A stretch of DNA of 64,000 nt from Escherichia coli (GCF_030384885.1 NZ_CP128613.1); one strand, 5' to 3'; shown: positions 6,436 through 38,643, numbered from the stretch's first letter. The notes: generated by a model from the letters alone, not told the origin. Made by a program: numbers and translations.

Positions 6436-7738
6436 GCGCCTGTACCTTGGCTCCGTAATCATTAATCGGCTGCCATTTCGCTGGCAGTCCGGTGAAATCT
6501 GCTTGCGCTACGCCAAGACGTACCGCCTGATCAATAACAATGCGCGCAACGTCAAAGTGACGTGCACGCGGATACTGTGACAGATATTCGCGTACCACCA
6601 GACCAAGATCCAACGGCACTTGTCTGGTTTTGTACACGGCAAGTTGTTCTTCGATGATCGCCGCCAGCTGTTCGCGGATCTCGTTAAACTCTTCGTACTC
6701 CAGATCCTCAGGAAGTTCCCCAGTCACTTCTTCATCGCGCAGTGCCATCTCTTCGTCACGCATATCCAGCAGACGATCGGCATTGGCATAAGTTAGCGCC
6801 CACGGTTCATCAAAATAGGTTTGTACCGACTGACGTAACCGCTGAGCAAAGACGCGGTTTTTATCCATATCGATAGCGGTACGAATAAATTTGTGTACGT
6901 GGCGGTCGTAGCCAATCCATAAGTCGATGGATTGCTGGCCCCAGCTGATAATACGGTCAAGTTTGCTTTGCAGATCGAACACCAGACGATCGACGAAATG
7001 CAGATCATCATGAGTCATCGTCGCATCCTGAATGCGTAACAGATTAGCCTGCAATTTATCACCTGCCGCTTCCAGCGTATCCTGCAATTCACGCAGCGTT
7101 CCGGAAGTTTCTGAAAGCAACAATTCGCAGCTGGAAATCGCCGCCCGCCAGTCTTTGTTCAGCAACTGGGCGATATCATCTTTCACCTGCTGCTGCTGTT
7201 CGTCCATCAGACGTTGCGTCAGGTCGATGCTGTCGAAAATTTCTGCTACCGAATATTTCAGTGGCGCATAGACATTACGGTGCCAGTGAAATTCATCACC
7301 GCCCTCTTCGGCGGCATCTGCCGCGCGTTTCAGTTCGCCCGCCACAATCGACAACTGCATAGAAAGGCGCAGCGTCGAAAACTCGCGCTGACGGATGTAG
7401 TAATCGGTAATACCGATGCCAAGCGGCGTCAGACGGTAAATTGCGTTCCCTTCAGCCTGCTCGCTGGTAAAGCGGTTCAGCAGACGTTGACGAACCATGT
7501 CGTTGATCGCGTTGTTGGCGCGCACGCCGATGGTTTCGCTGGTTTGCTCAAACGCATCACTCACATGGCGGAATGCATCCACCAGCTCGCCTTCGCTCAT
7601 CTCACCATCCAGACGCTCGCCGTTCAGCGTGGCAACCGCCAGCAGAAAAGAGAGTCGTTCTACCGGCAGCGAGATGGAGAAGTCATTTTTTCTGGCCCAG
7701 GCAACCAGTTCGGGGACTGTCTGGGAAAATTCACTCAT
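6416..7738 (-). CDS. mukF: Condensin kleisin subunit MukF
   Basis: 440-aa [23 protein letters not shown]...; ATGA overlap with the upstream cmoM stop. Confidence 0.95.
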
Positions 7739-8520
7739 ACTTTATCCTTGCTCTGCGGTTTGCGCGCGGTGACATGAATATAACGCCCCAGGGTAATATA
7801 CGGTTCCTGACGGCAATAACGCGTTTCTAATTCAAGTAATGCTTCATAGCAGTCGCACTGCTGGTGCTTCTCGCGCAGATAATCATGAAACACGCGAACG
7901 CCGGTCTTACCCATAATTTGCCAACCAGCTTCTTCCAGCCACAGATAAACCTGCGCCGGGTCGCGTGGATAATCTGGCGAAAGCGTCCGTTTTTTCTTTT
8001 TCGGCATTCCCGCCTGCACGTAATCAAAATTCCCTGCAACCATGTTATGCATCAGCAAGCCGTGCGCATTGTAGAACATTAACGACAACACACCGCCTGG
8101 ACGTAACACTGACCACAGGGTCTGCAATACGCTGCGGGGATCGGCCACCCACTCGAGCACCGCATGGAACAATATCAGATCAACGGGCGTTTCCAAATGC
8201 GAAGCAACATCCTGAGCGGCGCAATGTATAAATTGCATGTTGTCGCTCACACCTTTTGCTTCTGCCGCCTGTTTTGCGCGGTCGATCATCTGCGCTGAAA
8301 GATCGCATAAAATGACCTGATGCCCACGCTCGGCCATTTTGATTGCGGTCTGCCCTTCTCCACCGCCAGCATCCAGCACACGCAGTTTTTGCGAGCCCAT
8401 TTCCGCCAGCACGCGATCGAGATCCTGCCACAGAATAGCCTGTCGAAGCTGCCCTTTGGTGGTGCCGTAAATGTTACGGGAAAACTTTTCCGCAATATCA
8501 TCAAAATTGCGATCCTGCAT
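7735..8520 (-). CDS. cmoM: SAM-dependent methyltransferase CmoM (SmtA), tRNA cmo5U methylation
   Basis: Track ORF 7735..8532; start taken at ATG 8520 ([13 protein letters not shown]..., 261 aa); SAM-binding motif VLDAGGGEG; first gene of the mukFEB operon. Confidence 0.9.
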
Positions 8521-8655
8521 TGCTTTCTCCACCGGTTGGCTAAGACGTTTTCTGATAAAGACGCTATTTTGTCACAGCCACGGCGAGAATGAACCCGTCT
8601 GGTGTAATATCGCTGGCGATCCCTTGCTATATGGTCAAAAAAGGAACCAGAAAGG

Positions 8656-9435
8656 ATGCTTTTTACACTGAAAAAAGTGATTGGCAATATGTTGCTGCCA
8701 CTTCCGCTGATGTTGCTTATTATTGGCGCTGGCCTGGCGCTGCTGTGGTTTAGCCGTTTTCAAAAAACTGGGAAGATTTTTATTAGCATTGGGTGGCTGG
8801 CGCTCTTGTTATTGAGTTTGCAACCGATAGCCGACCGCCTGCTGCGTCCCATCGAAAGCACCTATCCGACATGGAATAATTCGCAAAAAGTGGACTATAT
8901 CGTGGTGCTCGGAGGTGGTTATACCTGGAACCCGCAGTGGGCACCGAGCTCTAATTTAATCAATAACAGTCTGCCACGCCTGAATGAAGGTATCCGCTTA
9001 TGGCGCGAAAATCCGGGATCAAAACTGATCTTCACGGGAGGCGTAGCAAAAACCAATACGGTGAGTACAGCCGAAGTAGGTGCCCGAGTTGCGCAATCGC
9101 TGGGTGTCCCTCGCGAGCAAATTATCACCCTGGATTTGCCAAAAGATACCGAAGAAGAAGCTGCGGCAGTGAAACAGGCGATTGGTGACGCCCCTTTCCT
9201 GCTGGTAACCTCCGCATCACATCTGCCGCGCGCGATGATCTTTTTTCAGCAGGAAGGGTTAAATCCGCTGCCAGCCCCGGCGAACCAGTTGGCCATCGAC
9301 TCGCCGCTTAATCCGTGGGAACGAGCAATCCCTTCTCCAGTCTGGTTAATGCATAGCGACCGCGTTGGCTATGAAACGCTTGGCCGGATCTGGCAGTGGC
9401 TGAAAGGTTCGTCAGGCGAGCCACGGCAAGAGTGA
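8656..9435 (+). CDS. elyC: Envelope biogenesis factor ElyC (YcbC), DUF218 membrane protein
   Basis: 259-aa ORF with N-terminal TM segment; diverges from cmoM; ATG preceded by aaagg. Confidence 0.9.
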   Translation: MLFTLKKVIGNMLLPLPLMLLIIGAGLALLWFSRFQKTGKIFISIGWLALLLLSLQPIADRLLRPIESTYPTWNNSQKVDYIVVLGGGYTWNPQWAPSSNLINNSLPRLNEGIRLWRENPGSKLIFTGGVAKTNTVSTAEVGARVAQSLGVPREQIITLDLPKDTEEEAAAVKQAIGDAPFLLVTSASHLPRAMIFFQQEGLNPLPAPANQLAIDSPLNPWERAIPSPVWLMHSDRVGYETLGRIWQWLKGSSGEPRQE

Positions 9436-30784: not shown

Positions 30785-30825
30785 TTAGTTTTGACTGAAA
30801 TCGTACAGTAAAAAGCGTACAATAA

Positions 30826-30852
30826 AGGCTCCACGAAAGTGGGGCCTTTTTT
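30826..30852 (+). terminator. Intrinsic terminator downstream of pflB
   Basis: Hairpin aggctccac-gaaa-gtggggcct followed by TTTTTT; a second gagagcc-TTTTTT element follows immediately. Confidence 0.75.
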
Positions 30853-30975
30853 AGCACGAGAGCCTTTTTTGTCAGCTATCTATACTTTAAGGTGACTGCC
30901 AAAACAGACTCGACGTAGCCTTCGAGCTGCGCACCAACACGGCCTCAGATGGGCCACATCTGGAGAAACACCGCA

Positions 30976-31716
30976 ATGTCAGTTATTGGTCGCATTCACT
31001 CCTTTGAATCCTGTGGAACCGTAGACGGCCCGGGTATTCGCTTTATCACCTTTTTCCAGGGCTGCCTGATGCGCTGCCTGTATTGTCATAACCGCGACAC
31101 CTGGGACACGCATGGCGGTAAAGAAGTTACCGTTGAAGATTTGATGAAGGAAGTGGTGACCTATCGCCACTTTATGAACGCTTCCGGCGGCGGCGTTACC
31201 GCATCCGGCGGTGAAGCAATCCTGCAAGCTGAGTTTGTTCGTGACTGGTTCCGCGCCTGCAAAAAAGAAGGCATTCATACCTGTCTGGATACCAACGGTT
31301 TTGTTCGTCGTTACGATCCGGTGATTGATGAACTGCTGGAAGTAACCGACCTGGTAATGCTCGATCTCAAACAGATGAACGACGAGATCCACCAAAATCT
31401 GGTTGGAGTTTCCAACCACCGCACGCTGGAGTTTGCTAAATATCTGGCGAATAAAAATGTGAAGGTGTGGATCCGCTACGTTGTTGTCCCTGGCTGGTCT
31501 GACGATGACGATTCAGCGCATCGCCTCGGTGAATTTACCCGTGATATGGGCAACGTTGAGAAAATCGAGCTTCTCCCCTACCACGAGCTGGGCAAACACA
31601 AATGGGTGGCGATGGGTGAAGAATACAAACTTGATGGTGTTAAACCACCGAAGAAAGAGACCATGGAACGCGTGAAAGGCATTCTTGAGCAGTACGGTCA
31701 CAAGGTAATGTTCTAA
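30976..31716 (+). CDS. pflA: Pyruvate formate-lyase activating enzyme (radical SAM)
   Basis: Track ORF 255 aa; start taken at ATG 30976 ([20 protein letters not shown], 246 aa) preceded by GGAG; CxxxCxxC motif CLMRCLYC. Confidence 0.95.
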
Positions 31717-31726
31717 TTTCCCCGTA

Positions 31727-31757
31727 AAGCGGCAACTTTATTGAGTTGCCGCTTTGT
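31727..31757. terminator. Hairpin terminator between convergent pflA and ycaK
   Basis: gcggcaac-tttattga-gttgccgc stem followed by TTTG; lies between two convergent stops. Confidence 0.65.
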
Positions 31758-31797
31758 TATTCCGCGCTTCATTCTGCTACAGCGTTTTTAACACATC

Positions 31798-32388
31798 TTA
31801 TAGTGCATCTACCATATCCCGTACCTGAGATAATAACGACTGATAATAGCTCGCGTGAAGTTCTTCCCCATCGAATACCACTGTATTACACAAGAAAGTG
31901 ACATCGGCATCTTCAATACCAAGATAACTGCACATATTTATCAAATATTCGCTTATATTTTTTTCCCAGCCCATCTGGACAAATGATTCTTTGTCTCCTC
32001 CAACCAGCGCCACCCAACGAACTTTATTGAATGGTAATTTGTGCCCATCTCCATAAGCCAGCCCATTATTCCATACTCTGTCAATATATCCTTTTAGCAT
32101 TGCTGGGAAGCTGTACCACCAGAGAGGAAAAACCACCACTAACGTGTCATGTTCAAGCAGCTCTGAATAAAGCTGATGAACCTCTGGAGAATAACGTTTA
32201 TCCATATTCTTCCAGTCTGGTTCATCTTCCGGCGTCATCACCGGGTTGAAATTACGCCGATATAAATCGAGTTCCGTCACCTGTATTTTCCGCTCCATTG
32301 CCCGCTGATGGATCGCATCAGCAATATGTGCGGTCAATGAATCATGACGAGGATGGGCCCATACCAAATAAATACGTTCAGACTGCAT
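31798..32388 (-). CDS. ycaK: Flavodoxin-like NAD(P)H-dependent oxidoreductase family protein YcaK
   Basis: 196-aa ORF; GGAGG upstream; diverges from the LysR gene ycaN. Confidence 0.85.
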   Translation of the reverse strand: MQSERIYLVWAHPRHDSLTAHIADAIHQRAMERKIQVTELDLYRRNFNPVMTPEDEPDWKNMDKRYSPEVHQLYSELLEHDTLVVVFPLWWYSFPAMLKGYIDRVWNNGLAYGDGHKLPFNKVRWVALVGGDKESFVQMGWEKNISEYLINMCSYLGIEDADVTFLCNTVVFDGEELHASYYQSLLSQVRDMVDAL

Positions 32389-32487
32389 AATTTTACCTCC
32401 ACGTTAAGTTCTGGAGCGCACTTTACGCAGGCGGCATCATCCTGTAAACGTGATGATTCAGGATGAGTTAATGAAGGATTTTCACTA

Positions 32488-33396
32488 ATGCGGATGAATA
32501 TGTCTGACTTTGCCACTTTCTTTGCCGTGGCCCGTAATCAAAGCTTTCGCGCAGCAGGCGATGAGTTAGGCTTATCTTCGTCCGCCATTAGCCATAGTAT
32601 TAAAACACTGGAACAACGTCTTAAAATTCGCTTATTCAATCGGACAACCCGAAGCGTATCGTTAACGGAAGCGGGTTCTAATCTCTATGAACGATTGCGC
32701 CCAGCTTTCGACGAAATTCAGATCATGTTAGATGAGATGAATGATTTTCGTCTGACACCGACAGGTACGCTCAAAATCAATGCCGCCCGGGTAGCTGCAC
32801 GTATATTTTTAATGCCTTTACTGGTTGGTTTCACACGTGAATATCCTGATATTAAAGTCGAGCTCACAACTGACGACTCTCTTGTTGATATCGTCCAGCA
32901 GGGCTTTGACGCTGGCGTTCGACTTAGTGGCATCGTCGAAAAAGATATGATCAGCGTGGCGATCGGCCCGCCAGTGAAATTATGTGTAGCAGCAACGCCA
33001 GAGTACTTTGCAAGATATGGCAAACCCCGCCATCCTCATGATCTGCTTAATCATCAATGTGTTGTTTTTCGTTATCCCAGCGGCAAACCTTTCCACTGGC
33101 AATTTGCAAAGGAGCTGGAAATTGCTGTCGCAGGAAATATCATTCTGGATGATGTTGATGCTGAACTGGATGCCGTTTTGATGGGTGCTGGTATCGGGTA
33201 TCTGCTCTATGAACAGATCAAGGAGTACCTTGATACCGGTCGTTTAGAATGTGTACTGGAAGACTGGATCACAGAGCGTCCAGGCTTCCAGATCTATTAC
33301 CCAAACCGCCAGTATATGTCCTGCGGCTTGCGCGCATTTCTCGATTATGTAAAAACGGGTCAGATCTGCCAGAGTCAGCGTCACCGACCACAATAA
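32488..33396 (+). CDS. ycaN: LysR-family transcriptional regulator YcaN
   Basis: 302-aa ORF; N-terminal helix-turn-helix region and LysR substrate-binding domain. Confidence 0.88.
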   Translation: MRMNMSDFATFFAVARNQSFRAAGDELGLSSSAISHSIKTLEQRLKIRLFNRTTRSVSLTEAGSNLYERLRPAFDEIQIMLDEMNDFRLTPTGTLKINAARVAARIFLMPLLVGFTREYPDIKVELTTDDSLVDIVQQGFDAGVRLSGIVEKDMISVAIGPPVKLCVAATPEYFARYGKPRHPHDLLNHQCVVFRYPSGKPFHWQFAKELEIAVAGNIILDDVDAELDAVLMGAGIGYLLYEQIKEYLDTGRLECVLEDWITERPGFQIYYPNRQYMSCGLRAFLDYVKTGQICQSQRHRPQ

Positions 33397-34827
33397 TTAT
33401 TTGCTATTCGCTTTACGCGCCAGCAGCGGGAATATCAGCCCTAATCCCACCAGCACAAACGGCGTTGCAACATTCAGCGCCAACTGGAATGTCCACTCTG
33501 CGGTGAAGGCTTCCATTTTCGGGAAAATACCCGTCAGGCAGGCAAAAGCGGTAAAGGCAAAACACCAAATTCCGACGGTCATTGCCAGCGGCTTATTACG
33601 AATAAAAACATATTCCGGCTTATATTTCTGCGCCAGGCGAACAACTGCAATAAATGCAACAAATACCCATAAATAACGCAGCGGCATCACTACCGAGTTA
33701 AGGTTCAACAGCCATTTATAGAGATTGTTCATATCACCGATGCCGAGAGTCGGCAGCATAATCAGGATCGCCACCAGCACCAGGGTCAGAAAATAGCCAT
33801 TAACGGGCGTACCAGATGCGTTGGTACGACATAAACTGGCAGGAATATATTTGCTGTCAGCATCGCCTAATAATACTTTAAGCGGCGCATCAATCGAGAA
33901 TACCAGCGCAGCTACTTGACCCAGAGTATTCGCAATGGCGTAAATCACCATTAAAGTATTACCCATGCTGTAATACTCGCCCAGCTTCTGGAAGGCGTAA
34001 TACTGGCCGTTGGTCATTAAGTCATCGGGAATATTGCGGGAGTCAAACATCATCCCCATTGCAAGCGATCCAAGGATCGCGCACACCGCAACCATCACCG
34101 CCAGGCATAACATCCCTTTTGGAAATTCTTTTCCTGGGTTGCGCGTTTGATTAACGTAGGGAGAAATCTTCTCTGCTCCACCAACCGCAAAGACCAGCAT
34201 TGAAATAGTGGTAATGTAGGTAAAGTCGATATGAGGAATAAACGTTTCCCAGGTAATGTTTGTGGTCGCAATATGCACTTCAGTAATCGCAGGCGCGGTT
34301 ACCGCCATCGCCACATACAGGAGCGACATAACAAACATCGCAATCCCTGCCACAGAACCGACGATTTTCAGCGATTTCATACCGCGTGAAGCAACCCACA
34401 TAAAGAAGACAAACAGCACCAGCGTTAACCCCTGTAACGCTACGACTGAATATTCTTTGATTAGCGAACCGTCGCCTTTCATCGCCCAACCGAGCGCAAT
34501 CAGTATTGCCTGGGGTTTTTGTGCCAGATAGGGAATATGCACTACCCAGTAGGTCCACGCGGCGAGGTAAGCCAGTCCGGGTCCCATCGTGTGTTTAATC
34601 CAGGTACTGACCCCGCCCTTCCCATCTTTGAAGGTCGAGCCTAACTGACCAACAATTAGCGCATAAGGTGTGAAATAGAGCGCAAAGATAAACACCCATG
34701 AAAAAACAACCACCAGCCCCTGGTTGGCGTAGTTATTAACAACGTTGCCAAAACCCCAGACAGTGATAAAAGACATCAGCGCAATGTTGTACCATCGCAG
34801 CTGTTTTTCCTGAACATTCCCAGCCAT
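33397..34827 (-). CDS. ycaM: APC-family amino acid/polyamine transporter YcaM
   Basis: Track ORF 540 aa; start taken at ATG 34827 (MAGNVQEKQLRWYNIALMSF, 476 aa); polytopic membrane protein. Confidence 0.83.
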   Translation of the reverse strand: MAGNVQEKQLRWYNIALMSFITVWGFGNVVNNYANQGLVVVFSWVFIFALYFTPYALIVGQLGSTFKDGKGGVSTWIKHTMGPGLAYLAAWTYWVVHIPYLAQKPQAILIALGWAMKGDGSLIKEYSVVALQGLTLVLFVFFMWVASRGMKSLKIVGSVAGIAMFVMSLLYVAMAVTAPAITEVHIATTNITWETFIPHIDFTYITTISMLVFAVGGAEKISPYVNQTRNPGKEFPKGMLCLAVMVAVCAILGSLAMGMMFDSRNIPDDLMTNGQYYAFQKLGEYYSMGNTLMVIYAIANTLGQVAALVFSIDAPLKVLLGDADSKYIPASLCRTNASGTPVNGYFLTLVLVAILIMLPTLGIGDMNNLYKWLLNLNSVVMPLRYLWVFVAFIAVVRLAQKYKPEYVFIRNKPLAMTVGIWCFAFTAFACLTGIFPKMEAFTAEWTFQLALNVATPFVLVGLGLIFPLLARKANSK

Positions 34828-35036
34828 AGACAAATCCTTCGCCAAAATTAAAGGGGCATCTGTAAAACGAGGGATTATGCGCGGCAAATAAGAAGTGCGG
34901 AAATAGCGAAATGCAAAATTATAACCTGCTGCACATTTTATTTTGAAACGAATAAAATTTTGAAAAAAGCAAGTCAGAGAGAAGAAACAAAAAAGCAGAG
35001 TGTGAAACAGTAAGTTCACACTCTGCGTTAATTCAT

Positions 35037-36185
35037 TTACACGTGAGCAACGGGTTTCGGCGTATGACCGGCGTTGCGAAGCAGCATCAGCAAATAGATA
35101 AACGATACGCTGGCGATCATGATAAACAATAAATTATCGGAGAAATTCTGCATTAGCATGGCAGTAAATGACGGGCCAAGCAGACTTCCCACAGTATAGC
35201 TCAACAGTAAGGCCTGGTTCATCGCCACCAGTTGATGATGTTCAACTTTCTCGCAAGCCCATGCCATCGCCACCGGATATAGCGTAAAGCCAGCGGCACC
35301 GAGGATGAATAACGCTGGGGCCATCGCCGCCTGGCTAAGCATCGCGATACTGCCGAGAATGACGACAAAGACCTGAACACGCAACACCAGCAGTCGACCA
35401 AACTTATCGGCCAGACGTCCAATCGGCCATTGTCCAAGGATACCCGCACTGACCAGTACCGCCATCCAGAAACCAATGCTGGCATTGCTCACCCCTTTGT
35501 GATTGAGGTACAGCGGCATCAGGCCATATAGAGATCCCCGAACGATTCCTGAGATAATGCAGCCATTCACGCCAAGCCGCGCCTGACGGAGTTTTAGCAT
35601 TGACGTAATTGACGTCGAATCATGGTTTTCAGCCTGCTGATTCAGCACACGCGTAAACAACAGCGGTAAGATCCCTGCCAACGTCAAACCTGTAACCCAC
35701 GGCAATACGGACATCAGCTCGGTTGAAACTTTGCTGACCAGTAACTGGCCTAAAAACGTTCCCACGTAATAAACCATCATATACGCAGCAAGCAAACGAC
35801 CACGGTTACGTGACGTCCCACTGCACATCAGCGCGCTCTCAACGACCACCCAAATCATGGCACAGCCGACACCCGCTACAAAACGCCACGCCAACCAGCT
35901 CCAGAAACCAATCATCAGGCCAAGACCTGCACAGCCAGCGGCAAAAATGAAGGAGGCCAGATAATAGCTGCGGTTAAAGCCAATGCGCTTAATGACATAC
36001 CCTGTCAGCAATGTACCGACCAGGTTGCCGGTAAAATAGGATGAGCTGACAACGCCTACCTGCCATGTGGACATATGTTCCTGGGCGAGCCAAAGCGGCA
36101 CGAGTGTATTTAACACTGCGATCGCCAAAGTCAACAAAAGCAGGCCAGACAGCAAAAGCATGACAGGCCGGGTATACGTGGACAT
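35037..36185 (-). CDS. ycaD: MFS transporter YcaD
   Basis: 382-aa ORF with about 12 predicted TM segments. Confidence 0.88.
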
Positions 36186-36499
36186 GAATTAAAACCGTGA
36201 GGAAGTTCAAATTTCATGCGCATCATGCCACCGCCAAAAACATTGTCAATGGGTGAAAATACGCGCATATCGCAGCTGAGGTATTATCGATTTATATTAC
36301 TCATTCATAACGCTAATGCTGGAGAGACGATTAATCTCATCTGATTGTTTTTATTGATCTAACACAAATTTCATACGCTTCGTTCAGTCGAAAAATTTCA
36401 TGGTCACAGCAAACTCATATTTCCCGTCTATGCTTTCAGAGCAATGCATCGCGTCTGACCGATTTCAGACGTACCGCTGACTCTCGAAAGGAGAAGAGG

Positions 36500-37126
36500 A
36501 TGACCAAACCGTATGTTCGTCTCGATAAAAATGATGCTGCCGTTTTGCTTGTTGATCACCAGGCTGGTTTACTTTCCCTTGTACGGGATATTGAACCCGA
36601 TAAGTTTAAAAATAACGTGCTGGCGCTGGGTGATCTGGCTAAGTATTTCAACTTACCTACTATTCTTACCACCAGTTTTGAAACCGGCCCTAACGGCCCA
36701 TTAGTTCCGGAACTGAAAGCACAGTTCCCTGATGCACCTTACATTGCTCGCCCGGGAAATATTAACGCCTGGGATAACGAAGATTTTGTGAAAGCGGTAA
36801 AAGCGACAGGTAAAAAACAATTGATTATCGCTGGTGTGGTAACCGAAGTTTGCGTTGCGTTCCCGGCACTTTCGGCAATTGAAGAAGGGTTTGATGTCTT
36901 TGTCGTGACTGACGCGTCAGGAACCTTTAACGAAATTACCCGGCACTCGGCGTGGGATCGAATGTCGCAAGCGGGTGCGCAATTGATGACATGGTTCGGC
37001 GTGGCGTGCGAGCTGCATCGCGACTGGCGTAATGATATTGAAGGACTGGCGACGTTGTTCTCTAACCATATTCCTGATTATCGTAATTTGATGACCAGTT
37101 ATGACACGTTAACGAAGCAGAAATAA
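36500..37126 (+). CDS. ycaC: Isochorismatase-family hydrolase YcaC
   Basis: 208-aa ORF; RBS aaggagaag; conserved Cys in the ...VCVAFPA... region. Confidence 0.9.
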   Translation: MTKPYVRLDKNDAAVLLVDHQAGLLSLVRDIEPDKFKNNVLALGDLAKYFNLPTILTTSFETGPNGPLVPELKAQFPDAPYIARPGNINAWDNEDFVKAVKATGKKQLIIAGVVTEVCVAFPALSAIEEGFDVFVVTDASGTFNEITRHSAWDRMSQAGAQLMTWFGVACELHRDWRNDIEGLATLFSNHIPDYRNLMTSYDTLTKQK

Positions 37127-37130
37127 AAGA

Positions 37131-37154
37131 GAACCGGGGCCGAAACCCCGGTTG
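37131..37154. terminator. Hairpin terminator between convergent ycaC and dmsC
   Basis: ccggggc-cgaaa-ccccgg hairpin in the 34-bp gap between two convergent stops. Confidence 0.6.
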
Positions 37155-37160
37155 TTATGA

Positions 37161-38024
37161 TTAGCTTGCGACGGCCATTCCCACGGTCATATGCAAACCA
37201 TAGAATACGCCACGACCGATTAATTCCCCTGCCAGAAGCAGAATGAATGATACGGAAAGTAGCGGAACCGCAGGCTGATAACCTTTTAGCTGTGGGGCAA
37301 TCCACAAGCACAGGGCAACAGCCAAAAGCACGATCCGCCAGGACATCAGCGCACCATAGTCCGGCACCAGCGCTGCGGCCTGCTGCACAGAGCTATGAAT
37401 AGTCGCCAGCTCTGCGCCCTGCATCACTGACACCACGCCACTCACTACCAGGGCCAGTACAGAAATAGCTGGCAGCAGACGCATCGCCCAGCCATCGACG
37501 CCAGCCAGACTCAGTAACAGGTAACCCAGTAACGGGCCGCCCATGAACATCGTCAGGAAGAAGCCCATCGGTGTCCAGATGCTGTACCAGGTGGGTACGG
37601 TATCGATGCTGTTATAGACACGCACCATCATCCAGACAAAGACTACGCCAAGAACCATCGTCACCACCAGCCACAGCGTACGCAATGCCGGTGACAGCTT
37701 TTTCAGCATTGCCAGTAACCAGCCGATGCCACCAACAGCAAAAAAGATCGAACCGCTGGCGATTTCGTTACTGAGTGCTGAAGCCCCTACCCGGTTGAGC
37801 GAGTTAAAGGCGCGCATCGGTGAACCAAGATGAAGCATAGAGGCGATAAAGCCAATCCCCATCAGCACCCATAAGCCAAACATGCAGGCGATAACACGCT
37901 GCTGGGCTTCTGCTCGCAGGTCGCCTTTGAGCAGCGCCAAAGCCAGAACGATAAAACCACCTGCTACACATTGCCCGAAGACCGTGAAGATCATCAGCGG
38001 CCATTCATGCCATCCACTTCCCAT
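37161..38024 (-). CDS. dmsC: DMSO reductase membrane anchor subunit DmsC
   Basis: Track ORF 308 aa; start taken at ATG 38024 (MGSGWHEWPLMIFTVF..., 287 aa), 1 nt after the dmsB stop. Confidence 0.92.
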   Translation of the reverse strand: MGSGWHEWPLMIFTVFGQCVAGGFIVLALALLKGDLRAEAQQRVIACMFGLWVLMGIGFIASMLHLGSPMRAFNSLNRVGASALSNEIASGSIFFAVGGIGWLLAMLKKLSPALRTLWLVVTMVLGVVFVWMMVRVYNSIDTVPTWYSIWTPMGFFLTMFMGGPLLGYLLLSLAGVDGWAMRLLPAISVLALVVSGVVSVMQGAELATIHSSVQQAAALVPDYGALMSWRIVLLAVALCLWIAPQLKGYQPAVPLLSVSFILLLAGELIGRGVFYGLHMTVGMAVAS

Positions 38025-38025
38025 C

Positions 38026-38643
38026 TCACACCTCCTTCGGGTTTGCCAGATAGCCAGTGGTATCCCCGGTCGGGCGGCTGTTGGCATTGGGTTTGATCAC
38101 AATATTCGGTTTGGTAAAGTGAGCTCGCGGCAACGGCGCAACAGCCGCCAAATCGCCATGTTTTTTACGCAGCTCGTCGATAGGGCCGAAATCCAGCGCC
38201 CGCAGCGGGCAAGATTCAACACAGATCGGCTTCTTCCCCTCCGCAACACGGTCATAACAACCATCGCATTTGGTCATATGGCCTTTCGTTTCGTTATATT
38301 GCGGTGCGCCATACGGGCAAGCCATATGGCAGTAGCGGCAGCCAATGCACACATCTTCATCGACCACAACAAAACCATCTTCACGTTTATGCATCGCACC
38401 GCTCGGGCAGACTTTAGTACAAGCCGGATCTTCGCAGTGGTTACATGAAATCGACAGATAGTAGGCAAACACGTTCTGATGCCAGACACCGTTATCTTCC
38501 TGCCAGTCACCGCCAGCATATTCATAAATGCGGCGGAAGCTGACTTCCGGCGTCAGATCTTTATAGTCTTTACAGGCCAGCTCGCAGGTTTTGCAACCGG
38601 TGCAACGGCTGGAATCAATAAAAAATCCATACTGGGTTGTCAT
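38026..38643 (-). CDS. dmsB: DMSO reductase iron-sulfur subunit DmsB
   Basis: 205-aa ORF with four Cys clusters typical of 4Fe-4S ferredoxin-type subunits. Confidence 0.96.
   Translation of the reverse strand: MTTQYGFFIDSSRCTGCKTCELACKDYKDLTPEVSFRRIYEYAGGDWQEDNGVWHQNVFAYYLSISCNHCEDPACTKVCPSGAMHKREDGFVVVDEDVCIGCRYCHMACPYGAPQYNETKGHMTKCDGCYDRVAEGKKPICVESCPLRALDFGPIDELRKKHGDLAAVAPLPRAHFTKPNIVIKPNANSRPTGDTTGYLANPKEV

Follow-up and report, generated by a model that had tools for sequence, protein, structure and literature searches.

A conserved divergent gene pair, ycaN–ycaK, encoding a LysR-type regulator and a putative quinone reductase in the variable pflA–dmsC interval of Escherichia coli

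The DNA analysed here is a stretch of 64 kb from an Escherichia coli chromosome (the window), and the region studied within it is the 7-kb interval from pflA to dmsC, which contains the genes ycaK, ycaN, ycaM, ycaD and ycaC. The identity of this region is 100% to the chromosome of E. coli strain 2013C-4282 and 97.4% to K-12. The RefSeq annotation and a list of open reading frames (ORFs) agree on the positions of the genes, so the five genes are real and not chance ORFs. An earlier note on this DNA, made from the sequence, had described these five genes, a spacer of 99 bp between the divergent ycaK and ycaN, and the lack of any spacing between the convergent ycaN and ycaM; all of this was confirmed, the stop codon of ycaN ending at 33396 and that of ycaM starting at 33397. 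Its five family assignments were upheld as well, as every Pfam and NCBIfam match was above the curated cut-offs. The note had further read the genes as one cluster, in which ycaN would probably control ycaK and possibly the transporter genes, and had named a lack of co-conservation across genomes as a result that would speak against it. The features of the interval are listed in Table 1.

Table 1. Genes and regulatory features of the pflA–dmsC interval (window coordinates; a dot marks features not assigned to one strand)
Feature	Position	Strand	Description	Family or basis
pflA	30976-31716	+		annotation
ycaK	31798-32388	-	196-aa NQO1/NQO2-like flavodoxin-fold NAD(P)H oxidoreductase	PF02525, NF007280
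ycaK–ycaN divergent control region	32389-32487	.	99 bp, common to both genes	
Predicted ycaK promoter	32420-32448	-	-35 TTTACA (32448-32443), 17 nt, -10 TAAAGT (32425-32420)	consensus scan
Dyad ATCATC-N10-GATGAT	32436-32457	.	over the ycaK -35 element; candidate activation site, putative role	
LysR-type T-N11-A box TGAAGGATTTTCA	32472-32484	.	dyad TGA-N7-TCA; candidate recognition site	
ycaN	32488-33396	+	302-aa LysR-type regulator, CrgA/AphB-like branch	HTH_1 + LysR_substrate
ycaM	33397-34827	-	APC-family permease, annotated 476 aa	AA_permease_2
ycaM promoter-like site	34918-34947	-	TTCAAA-18-TATAAT, 10/12 consensus matches	prediction
ycaD intrinsic terminator	34995-35026	-	12-bp stem, then T run; intact in genomes without ycaK-ycaN-ycaM	
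ycaD	35037-36185	-	MFS transporter	MFS_1, NF002962
ycaD promoter-like site	36222-36249	-	TTGACA-16-CATGAT with TG extension; same sequence upstream of Salmonella ycaD	
ycaC	36500-37126	+	isochorismatase-family cysteine hydrolase, solved structure	Isochorismatase, NF041461
Bidirectional hairpin terminator between ycaC and dmsC	37132-37153	.		terminator scan, both strands
dmsC	37161-38024	-		annotation

The presence of the genes within the species was assayed with DNA queries against 5,426 complete E. coli genomes. Of these, 5,425 had a match to the 7-kb query, in which pflA, ycaD, ycaC and dmsC are also included, 4,371 to ycaM and 3,340 to the ycaK–ycaN DNA. At least 80% of the pair was present in 3,317 of the 3,340 genomes with any DNA of it, as expected from joint loss. 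The E. coli locus was found in three discrete states. All five genes are present in K-12, BL21 and the strain studied here. In O157:H7 and others, a deletion of window positions 31773-33283 takes ycaK and most of ycaN, and the 113-bp 3' end of ycaN that is left over adjoins the ycaM stop codon and is annotated as a pseudogene. In O157:H7, the place of the 1.5-kb ycaK–ycaN segment is taken by a 40-bp filler (locus coordinates 1774-1813) with no match in the window. In Nissle 1917 and others, a deletion of 31756-34986 takes ycaK, ycaN and ycaM; the pflA terminator of Nissle 1917 lies 7 bp from that of ycaD, the latter being intact.

Different subsets of the five genes were also found in other genera. 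The interval of Salmonella enterica reads dmsC-ycaD-ycaM-pflA, with ycaC, ycaN and ycaK absent, and that of Pseudocitrobacter corydidari and of 'Enterobacteriaceae bacterium 89' reads dmsC-ycaD-ycaN-ycaK-(...)-pflA, with ycaM and ycaC absent, while an Escherichia-like metagenome contig carries all five genes. The only one of the five present in every configuration examined (the three E. coli classes, Salmonella, Pseudocitrobacter and bacterium 89) is ycaD. In P. corydidari (locus positions 6624-8685), ycaK and pflA are separated by an inserted gene of the choloylglycine hydrolase family (CBAH) and by an inserted second LysR gene, which is another sign of an insertion hot spot.

As the gene subset differs from genome to genome, the cluster as a whole is not co-conserved, and the idea of one five-gene cluster was not borne out; ycaM, ycaD and ycaC are the genes that lack co-conservation. 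Neither a regulatory site nor a transcript common to the five genes was found: the box of the ycaK–ycaN spacer has no second copy in the window, and ycaD, ycaM and ycaC are set apart from one another by a terminator and by promoter-like sites. The five yca genes are not an evolutionary or functional unit. The pflA–dmsC interval is probably a hot spot of gene gain and loss that holds four independent units, ycaK–ycaN, ycaM, ycaD and ycaC, and only ycaN–ycaK is likely to be a functional module within it.

The distribution of this pair was surveyed by scanning one genome per species with a YcaK alignment, followed by tblastn of the returned loci. The survey is a sample rather than a census, and E. 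coli itself is absent from the matches listed. The divergent ycaN–ycaK pair is kept in at least 24 other loci, whose hosts range from Enterobacterales to Pseudomonas and Janthinobacterium. Among the matches listed, all 21 proteobacterial loci with closer YcaK homologs (44-59% identity) have a gene for a YcaN-like LysR protein (43-75%) divergent and directly upstream; their hosts include Cedecea, Enterobacter, Pantoea, Serratia, Rahnella, Limnobaculum, Symbiopectobacterium, Gilliamella, Billgrantia, Chelativorans, Janthinobacterium and Pseudomonas. Three further look-ups revealed the same divergent pair in the Escherichia-like metagenome contig, in a Salmonella genomic island and in Pseudocitrobacter. 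When all neighbouring ORFs of the loci among the matches listed were clustered, no recurrent third gene was detected, and the context of the pair varies between pfl/dms, yibF/mtl and an island with an HNH nuclease; in the Cedecea group it lies between yibF/selAB and mtlADR. The pair of S. enterica contigs is a second, divergent one of a LysR gene and a YcaK-like gene (54% identity), located away from pfl/dms, with a 100-bp spacer and the box TGAGGAAATTTCA; its island carries an HNH_2 nuclease, a DUF6884 gene and hypothetical genes.

YcaN is better conserved than YcaK in nearly every locus, for example 57-75% versus 48-60% in Enterobacterales, the reverse of the usual pattern for a regulator and an enzyme. 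Named homologs of YcaK are either from E. coli (97-98% identity) or, next to these, at most 66% identical, and ycaK does not belong to the core of Salmonella or Klebsiella. This distribution, together with a low GC content at third codon positions (GC3; values below), fits an accessory cassette. Carriage of the pair on plasmids was considered and rejected: the five E. coli 'plasmid' matches include records of 4.8 and 1.3 Mb and look chromosomal, and the sole Enterobacter plasmid homolog (47% identity) has no YcaN partner.

The control region shared by both genes has a length of 97-102 bp in 15 other Enterobacterales loci. In the alignment of these spacers the ycaN-proximal half is nearly invariant and the ycaK-proximal half variable, while the proteins are only 48-75% identical. 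A T-N11-A box typical of LysR regulators, for which the earlier note had proposed to look in this spacer, is present there; in 24 of 25 loci such a box, with its 3-bp dyad, occupies exactly positions -16 to -4 relative to the ycaN start codon. It is kept even in Pseudomonas, Janthinobacterium and Billgrantia, whose spacers are otherwise not alignable and whose boxes have a different 7-nt centre. According to lineage this centre reads AGGATTT, GAATAAC, GAAAAAT or ACGATGC, and in Billgrantia the box is TAA-N7-TTA, with both arms changed together. No other match to the 17-bp version of the box was detected at up to three mismatches in the 64-kb window, the regions upstream of focA, ycaD, ycaC and ycaM included.

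The predicted ycaK promoter is placed at a constant position with respect to this box. Like hexamers with a spacing of 17 nt are found at the same distance from the ycaN ATG and the box in 20 of the 25 loci, including those of Pseudomonas and Janthinobacterium; the hexamers of the beta-proteobacterial and Pseudomonas loci are TTATCA with TAAGCT or TATTCT. Both the -35 and the -10 hexamers are conserved blocks of the spacer alignment, and a ycaK leader longer by 30-50 bp, where it occurs, leaves their distance to the box unchanged. In Enterobacteriaceae bacterium 89 the dyad over the -35 element reads ATAATC-N10-GATTAT, so that both arms have changed and the symmetry is kept. From the consensus promoter, transcription of ycaK would start near 32413; the box would then be centred some 65 bp upstream of this start, with the second block at -35. 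These two positions correspond to the classical LysR geometry of a recognition site and an activation site, as summarised in PMC2724274. On this comparative evidence YcaN probably controls ycaK, as the earlier note had supposed, given that the divergent pair recurs in other loci with no constant third gene and with a box conserved in position. Comparative support of this kind was not found in the literature searched.

YcaN has the features of the LysR family: a helix-turn-helix, an effector domain and a divergent gene with a T-N11-A box in the spacer. Its winged helix-turn-helix domain HTH_1 (PF00126) scores 74 bits (cut-off 26.6) over residues 7-63 and its LysR_substrate domain (PF03466) 114.3 bits over residues 91-290 of a protein of 302. 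The best solved relatives are 3mz1 (119 bits), CrgA of Neisseria meningitidis (3hhg, 108 bits, residues 1-289) and AphB. A P-x-G hinge, with P91 kept in 19 and G93 in 20 of 20 orthologs, aligns with the P-Q-G of CrgA; such a rigid hinge instead of G-x-x-G is said to mark the octameric CrgA (PMC11495319). Sensing through a thiol switch, as in AphB or OxyR, was rejected for YcaN. None of its five Cys residues is invariant, and this argues for the binding of a ligand over a thiol switch.

YcaK scores 135.6 bits with Flavodoxin_2 (PF02525, cut-off 27) and 350.8 bits with the NCBIfam model NF007280 (cut-off 162). Its nearest solved structures are the NAD(P)H quinone reductases 4r81 and 3lcm and the mammalian NQO1 and NQO2, and the search of solved structures gave none of YcaK itself. 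Residues P88, W90, W91, P95, A96, K99, G100, Y101, R104 and V105 form a core that is invariant among the orthologs. From its sequence, YcaK would be an NQO1/NQO2-like flavoprotein that reduces its substrate with NAD(P)H. In the literature searched, the only mentions of E. coli ycaK were in libraries of oxidoreductases and in a strain with multiple nitroreductase deletions, and no kinetics were found; in PMC3596305 and PMC4051601, the label 'ycaK' is carried by PA1225 of Pseudomonas aeruginosa.

The best explanation for these data, with a probability of roughly 60%, would be that YcaN acts as a ligand-dependent activator of ycaK and as a repressor of its own gene, in the manner of CrgA and mdaB. 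Gene content, co-conservation and the conserved layout of box and promoter were observed directly, and from them we infer the binding of YcaN, the direction of its effect, its ligand and the substrate of the enzyme. According to this explanation, YcaN would bind the 99-bp spacer at the T-N11-A recognition site, about 65 bp upstream of the ycaK start, and would also contact the second conserved block over the ycaK -35 element. As the recognition site is located just before the ycaN ATG, binding there would limit the expression of ycaN itself. Upon binding of a small ligand to its effector domain, YcaN would activate ycaK. This ligand could plausibly be a quinone, a related electrophile or a product of one, a reasonable guess as to the nature of the signal, and YcaK would reduce the compound at the expense of NAD(P)H. 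The published base means without inducer, 74 for ycaK, 65 for ycaN and 18 for ycaM versus 1,012 for ycaC, reveal a low basal expression of the first three genes that fits an uninduced activator.

Several observations weigh against this explanation. RNA sequencing of a ycaN deletion mutant in late exponential phase in M9 with threonine (PMC9068703) detected 702 differentially expressed genes and highlights ycaC (down), ycaD and focA (both up) rather than ycaK, along with a formate phenotype; the conclusion of its authors was that adjacent y-genes are under the control of YcaN. PycaC and PycaD are named as the targets of YcaN in a review from 2024 (PMC11495319). Chromatin immunoprecipitation followed by exonuclease digestion (ChIP-exo) of YcaN in glucose M9 gave six weak sites (cspE, ynjB, yobF, ung, rho and yihQ) and none in this locus (PMC8464067 supplement). 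Both genome-wide experiments were run without a candidate inducer, so that neither of them tests the activation of ycaK. With respect to the DNA, the generic T-N11-A dyad occurs in the window at chance frequency (16 found, 17.4 expected), and what counts as evidence is therefore the positional conservation of the box rather than a match as such. As to the second block, its dyad is T-N12-A instead of the canonical T-N11-A, and the box overlaps the ribosome-binding region of ycaN, so part of its conservation could be translational. Finally, distant YcaK-like genes exist without a YcaN partner, namely proteobacterial ones of 42-45% identity, those of Firmicutes and Actinobacteria, and the Enterobacter plasmid copy. 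Elsewhere in the literature, ycaN has served as a neutral linked marker for pflB and is listed as a changed transcription factor.

The same promoter layout could also be used for repression: YcaN would mainly repress ycaK, with the dyad over the -35 element as its operator, and the ligand would relieve this repression. Such a role would agree with the position of the ATCATC-N10-GATGAT dyad, which covers the -35 hexamer, with the low basal expression of ycaK and with the ability of LysR proteins to repress, CrgA itself doing both. We consider it unlikely, as the adjacent ycaK is not reported as derepressed in the ycaN deletion mutant in the accessible part of PMC9068703, activators usually have this geometry of a box at -65 and another site at -35, and the TTTACA/TAAAGT hexamers are imperfect, as expected for an activator-dependent promoter.

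It is quite unlikely that the five genes constitute one regulon under the control of YcaN, although this would agree with the published assignment of PycaC and PycaD, with its repetition in the review and with the changes in ycaC, ycaD and focA and the formate phenotype described above. About 2,085 E. coli genomes have ycaD and ycaC but no ycaN. With about 39% of the complete genomes, O157:H7 and Nissle 1917 among them, lacking the regulator yet keeping its supposed targets, gene adjacency in K-12 is a poor guide here. Salmonella has ycaD-ycaM without ycaN, ycaK and ycaC, and both ycaM and ycaC are absent from the 21 other ycaN–ycaK loci searched. No copy of the conserved box was found near ycaC, ycaD, ycaM or focA, the ChIP-exo assay in glucose M9 detected no site in the locus, and ycaD has a terminator of its own and a promoter-like site conserved in Salmonella. 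Besides, the 702 genes changed in late exponential phase point to indirect effects. The control of the transporter genes by YcaN, considered possible in the earlier note, was thus not borne out, given the lack of co-conservation, the single copy of the box in the window, the ycaD terminator and the promoter-like site of ycaM. Direct control of ycaM, ycaD or ycaC by YcaN finds no support at the sequence level, and the published effects of the ycaN deletion on ycaC and ycaD are more likely indirect.

It could also be argued that the sequence beside the ycaN ATG is only an element of translation initiation or of the 5' untranslated region, the adjacency of both genes being left over from their joint transfer. 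The purine-rich centre of the box (AAGGA) is indeed at Shine-Dalgarno distance from the ATG. However, the central 7 nt vary by lineage while the TGA/TCA dyad and its exact position are kept, Billgrantia changed both arms together (TAA/TTA), and the distance between the ycaK promoter and the box is fixed regardless of the longer ycaK leaders, which makes this alternative very unlikely. That YcaK is an ancillary transporter subunit like KefF or KefG, for instance of one of the neighbouring permeases, and not a detoxifying reductase is extremely improbable, because its weak matches to both models (58.1 and 50.1 bits) fall far short of the cut-offs (210 and 240), there is no Kef-type gene next to it or annotated in the locus, and the two transporter genes nearby that could favour such a role, ycaM and ycaD, are missing from almost every other ycaK locus.

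Regarding the genes outside the pair, YcaD reaches 727 bits with NF002962 and is below every equivalog cut-off that names a substrate. The motif AAATTTCAT is present three times in the ycaD–ycaC intergenic region (36186-36499), at about 36209, 36366 and 36395, and similar copies are found upstream of the Salmonella ycaD, which has no ycaC next to it; this motif may be the binding site of a regulator of ycaD. The divergent ycaC encodes a protein with 407.9 bits for NF041461, above the equivalog cut-off of 310, which is near-identical to PDB 1YAC (464.9 bits, residues 1-208) and matches PA1202 of P. aeruginosa (4WGF/4WH0) with 365 bits. The 77% identity between PA1202 and YcaC was termed unusually high in the paper on the PA1202 structure. 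The distribution of ycaC is patchy despite this strong conservation: it is absent from the Salmonella, Pseudocitrobacter and bacterium 89 loci, and it is not linked to ycaN–ycaK outside Escherichia.

The longest ORF of ycaM extends to 35019, beyond the annotated protein. YcaM matches AA_permease_2 above the curated cut-off, and its best NCBIfam match is YjeM (161 bits); as it is below every equivalog cut-off, no substrate can be assigned to it. Among its best 120 matches, every named source outside Escherichia and Salmonella is a Firmicute, with 64-70% identity over the full length (Paenibacillus 65-70%, Brevibacillus 64-68%, Clostridium 64-66%). The Salmonella ycaM is 83% identical, and the GC3 of the E. 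coli gene, 0.55, is already E. coli-like. This looks like an old inter-phylum transfer involving Firmicutes. The location of its promoter-like site downstream of the ycaD terminator favours a transcription unit of its own, and ycaM, missing from the 21 other ycaN–ycaK loci searched for it and found in Salmonella without either partner, is an independent accessory gene outside the ycaN–ycaK module. The neighbourhoods of the Firmicute homologs were rejected as a hint to the substrate, as they are not conserved except for a glycerophosphodiester phosphodiesterase gene in two genera. In Brevibacillus this gene is immediately upstream of the homolog, and in Clostridium it is found some 4 kb downstream; this arrangement hints weakly that YcaM could handle a glycerophosphodiester head group. 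YcaM has been implicated in colistin killing in a 2025 preprint, and ycaM–ycaN is catalogued in the literature as a convergent 'excludon'.

The composition of the interval is uneven. The GC3 of ycaK (0.41), ycaN (0.44) and ycaC (0.455) is low compared with the 0.55-0.62 of pflBA, ycaM, ycaD and dmsABC, which fits a later acquisition of these three genes. DNA identity to K-12 is 95.2-96.6% for ycaM, ycaC and dmsC and 98.3-99.2% for ycaK, ycaN, pflA and ycaD, and in the search of complete E. coli genomes ycaM was found at 99% identity or more in only 14. This mosaic divergence suggests recombination within the pflA–dmsC interval. A repeat search around ycaK–ycaN gave no scars of insertion sequences or attachment sites, and an Rfam scan of 30800-38200 had as its sole match a fragment of STnc100 below the threshold at the edge, of no relevance here. 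For a wider proposal the chances seem about even: ycaN–ycaK would be a self-contained, horizontally mobile cassette made of a sensor and a detoxifier for a specific quinone or electrophile, its promoter layout being constant from Enterobacterales to Pseudomonas and Janthinobacterium, the effects on PycaC and PycaD would be indirect, and the interval would be a mosaic of at least four acquisitions, with ycaM coming from Firmicutes.

These results provide YcaN with a defined candidate target, PycaK, whose 13-bp box is open to mutation, and the conserved ycaK promoter could be used as a reporter for finding the inducer. They also advise caution with the current assignment of ycaC and ycaD as YcaN targets in the literature. 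The understanding of LysR regulators and quinone reductases in general is unchanged, the locus being an ordinary, largely described patchwork of accessory type.

The components of the interval can be compared with characterised systems. YcaC, as represented by 1YAC, and PA1202 share the cysteine hydrolase fold family. YcaM belongs to AA_permease_2, like the APC permeases of the YjeM/GadC branch, but it remains far below the equivalog cut-offs and has its closest relatives in Firmicutes. YcaK resembles the NQO1/NQO2-type quinone and azo reductases in its Pfam and NCBIfam membership, its best solved matches and its conserved core. The ycaK promoter resembles those classically activated by LysR proteins in having a box around -65, a block over the -35 element and a divergent regulator gene whose start overlaps the recognition site, although here the ycaK start is placed from a consensus promoter.

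The CrgA–mdaB system of N. meningitidis provides the most extensive parallel. CrgA represses its own expression and, through T-N11-A sites in the spacer between the two genes, activates mdaB, the divergent gene for a quinone reductase (PMC2724274); one of these sites is beside the -35 element of the reductase promoter. Both systems consist of a LysR regulator gene divergent from that of a flavodoxin-fold quinone reductase, putative in the case of YcaK, with T-N11-A motifs in the common intergenic region, and YcaN matches CrgA and shares its P-x-G hinge. In contrast, YcaN is a homolog and not an ortholog of CrgA, and YcaK belongs to the NF007280 subfamily and not to MdaB. The two adjacent 30-bp T-N11-A sites of the CrgA system were footprinted, whereas the ycaK–ycaN spacer has one canonical box and a T-N12-A dyad about 32 bp apart, both recognised from the sequence. 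With these differences, CrgA–mdaB is the closest characterised analogue of ycaN–ycaK, which is one more pair of LysR regulator and putative quinone reductase of the CrgA–mdaB type.

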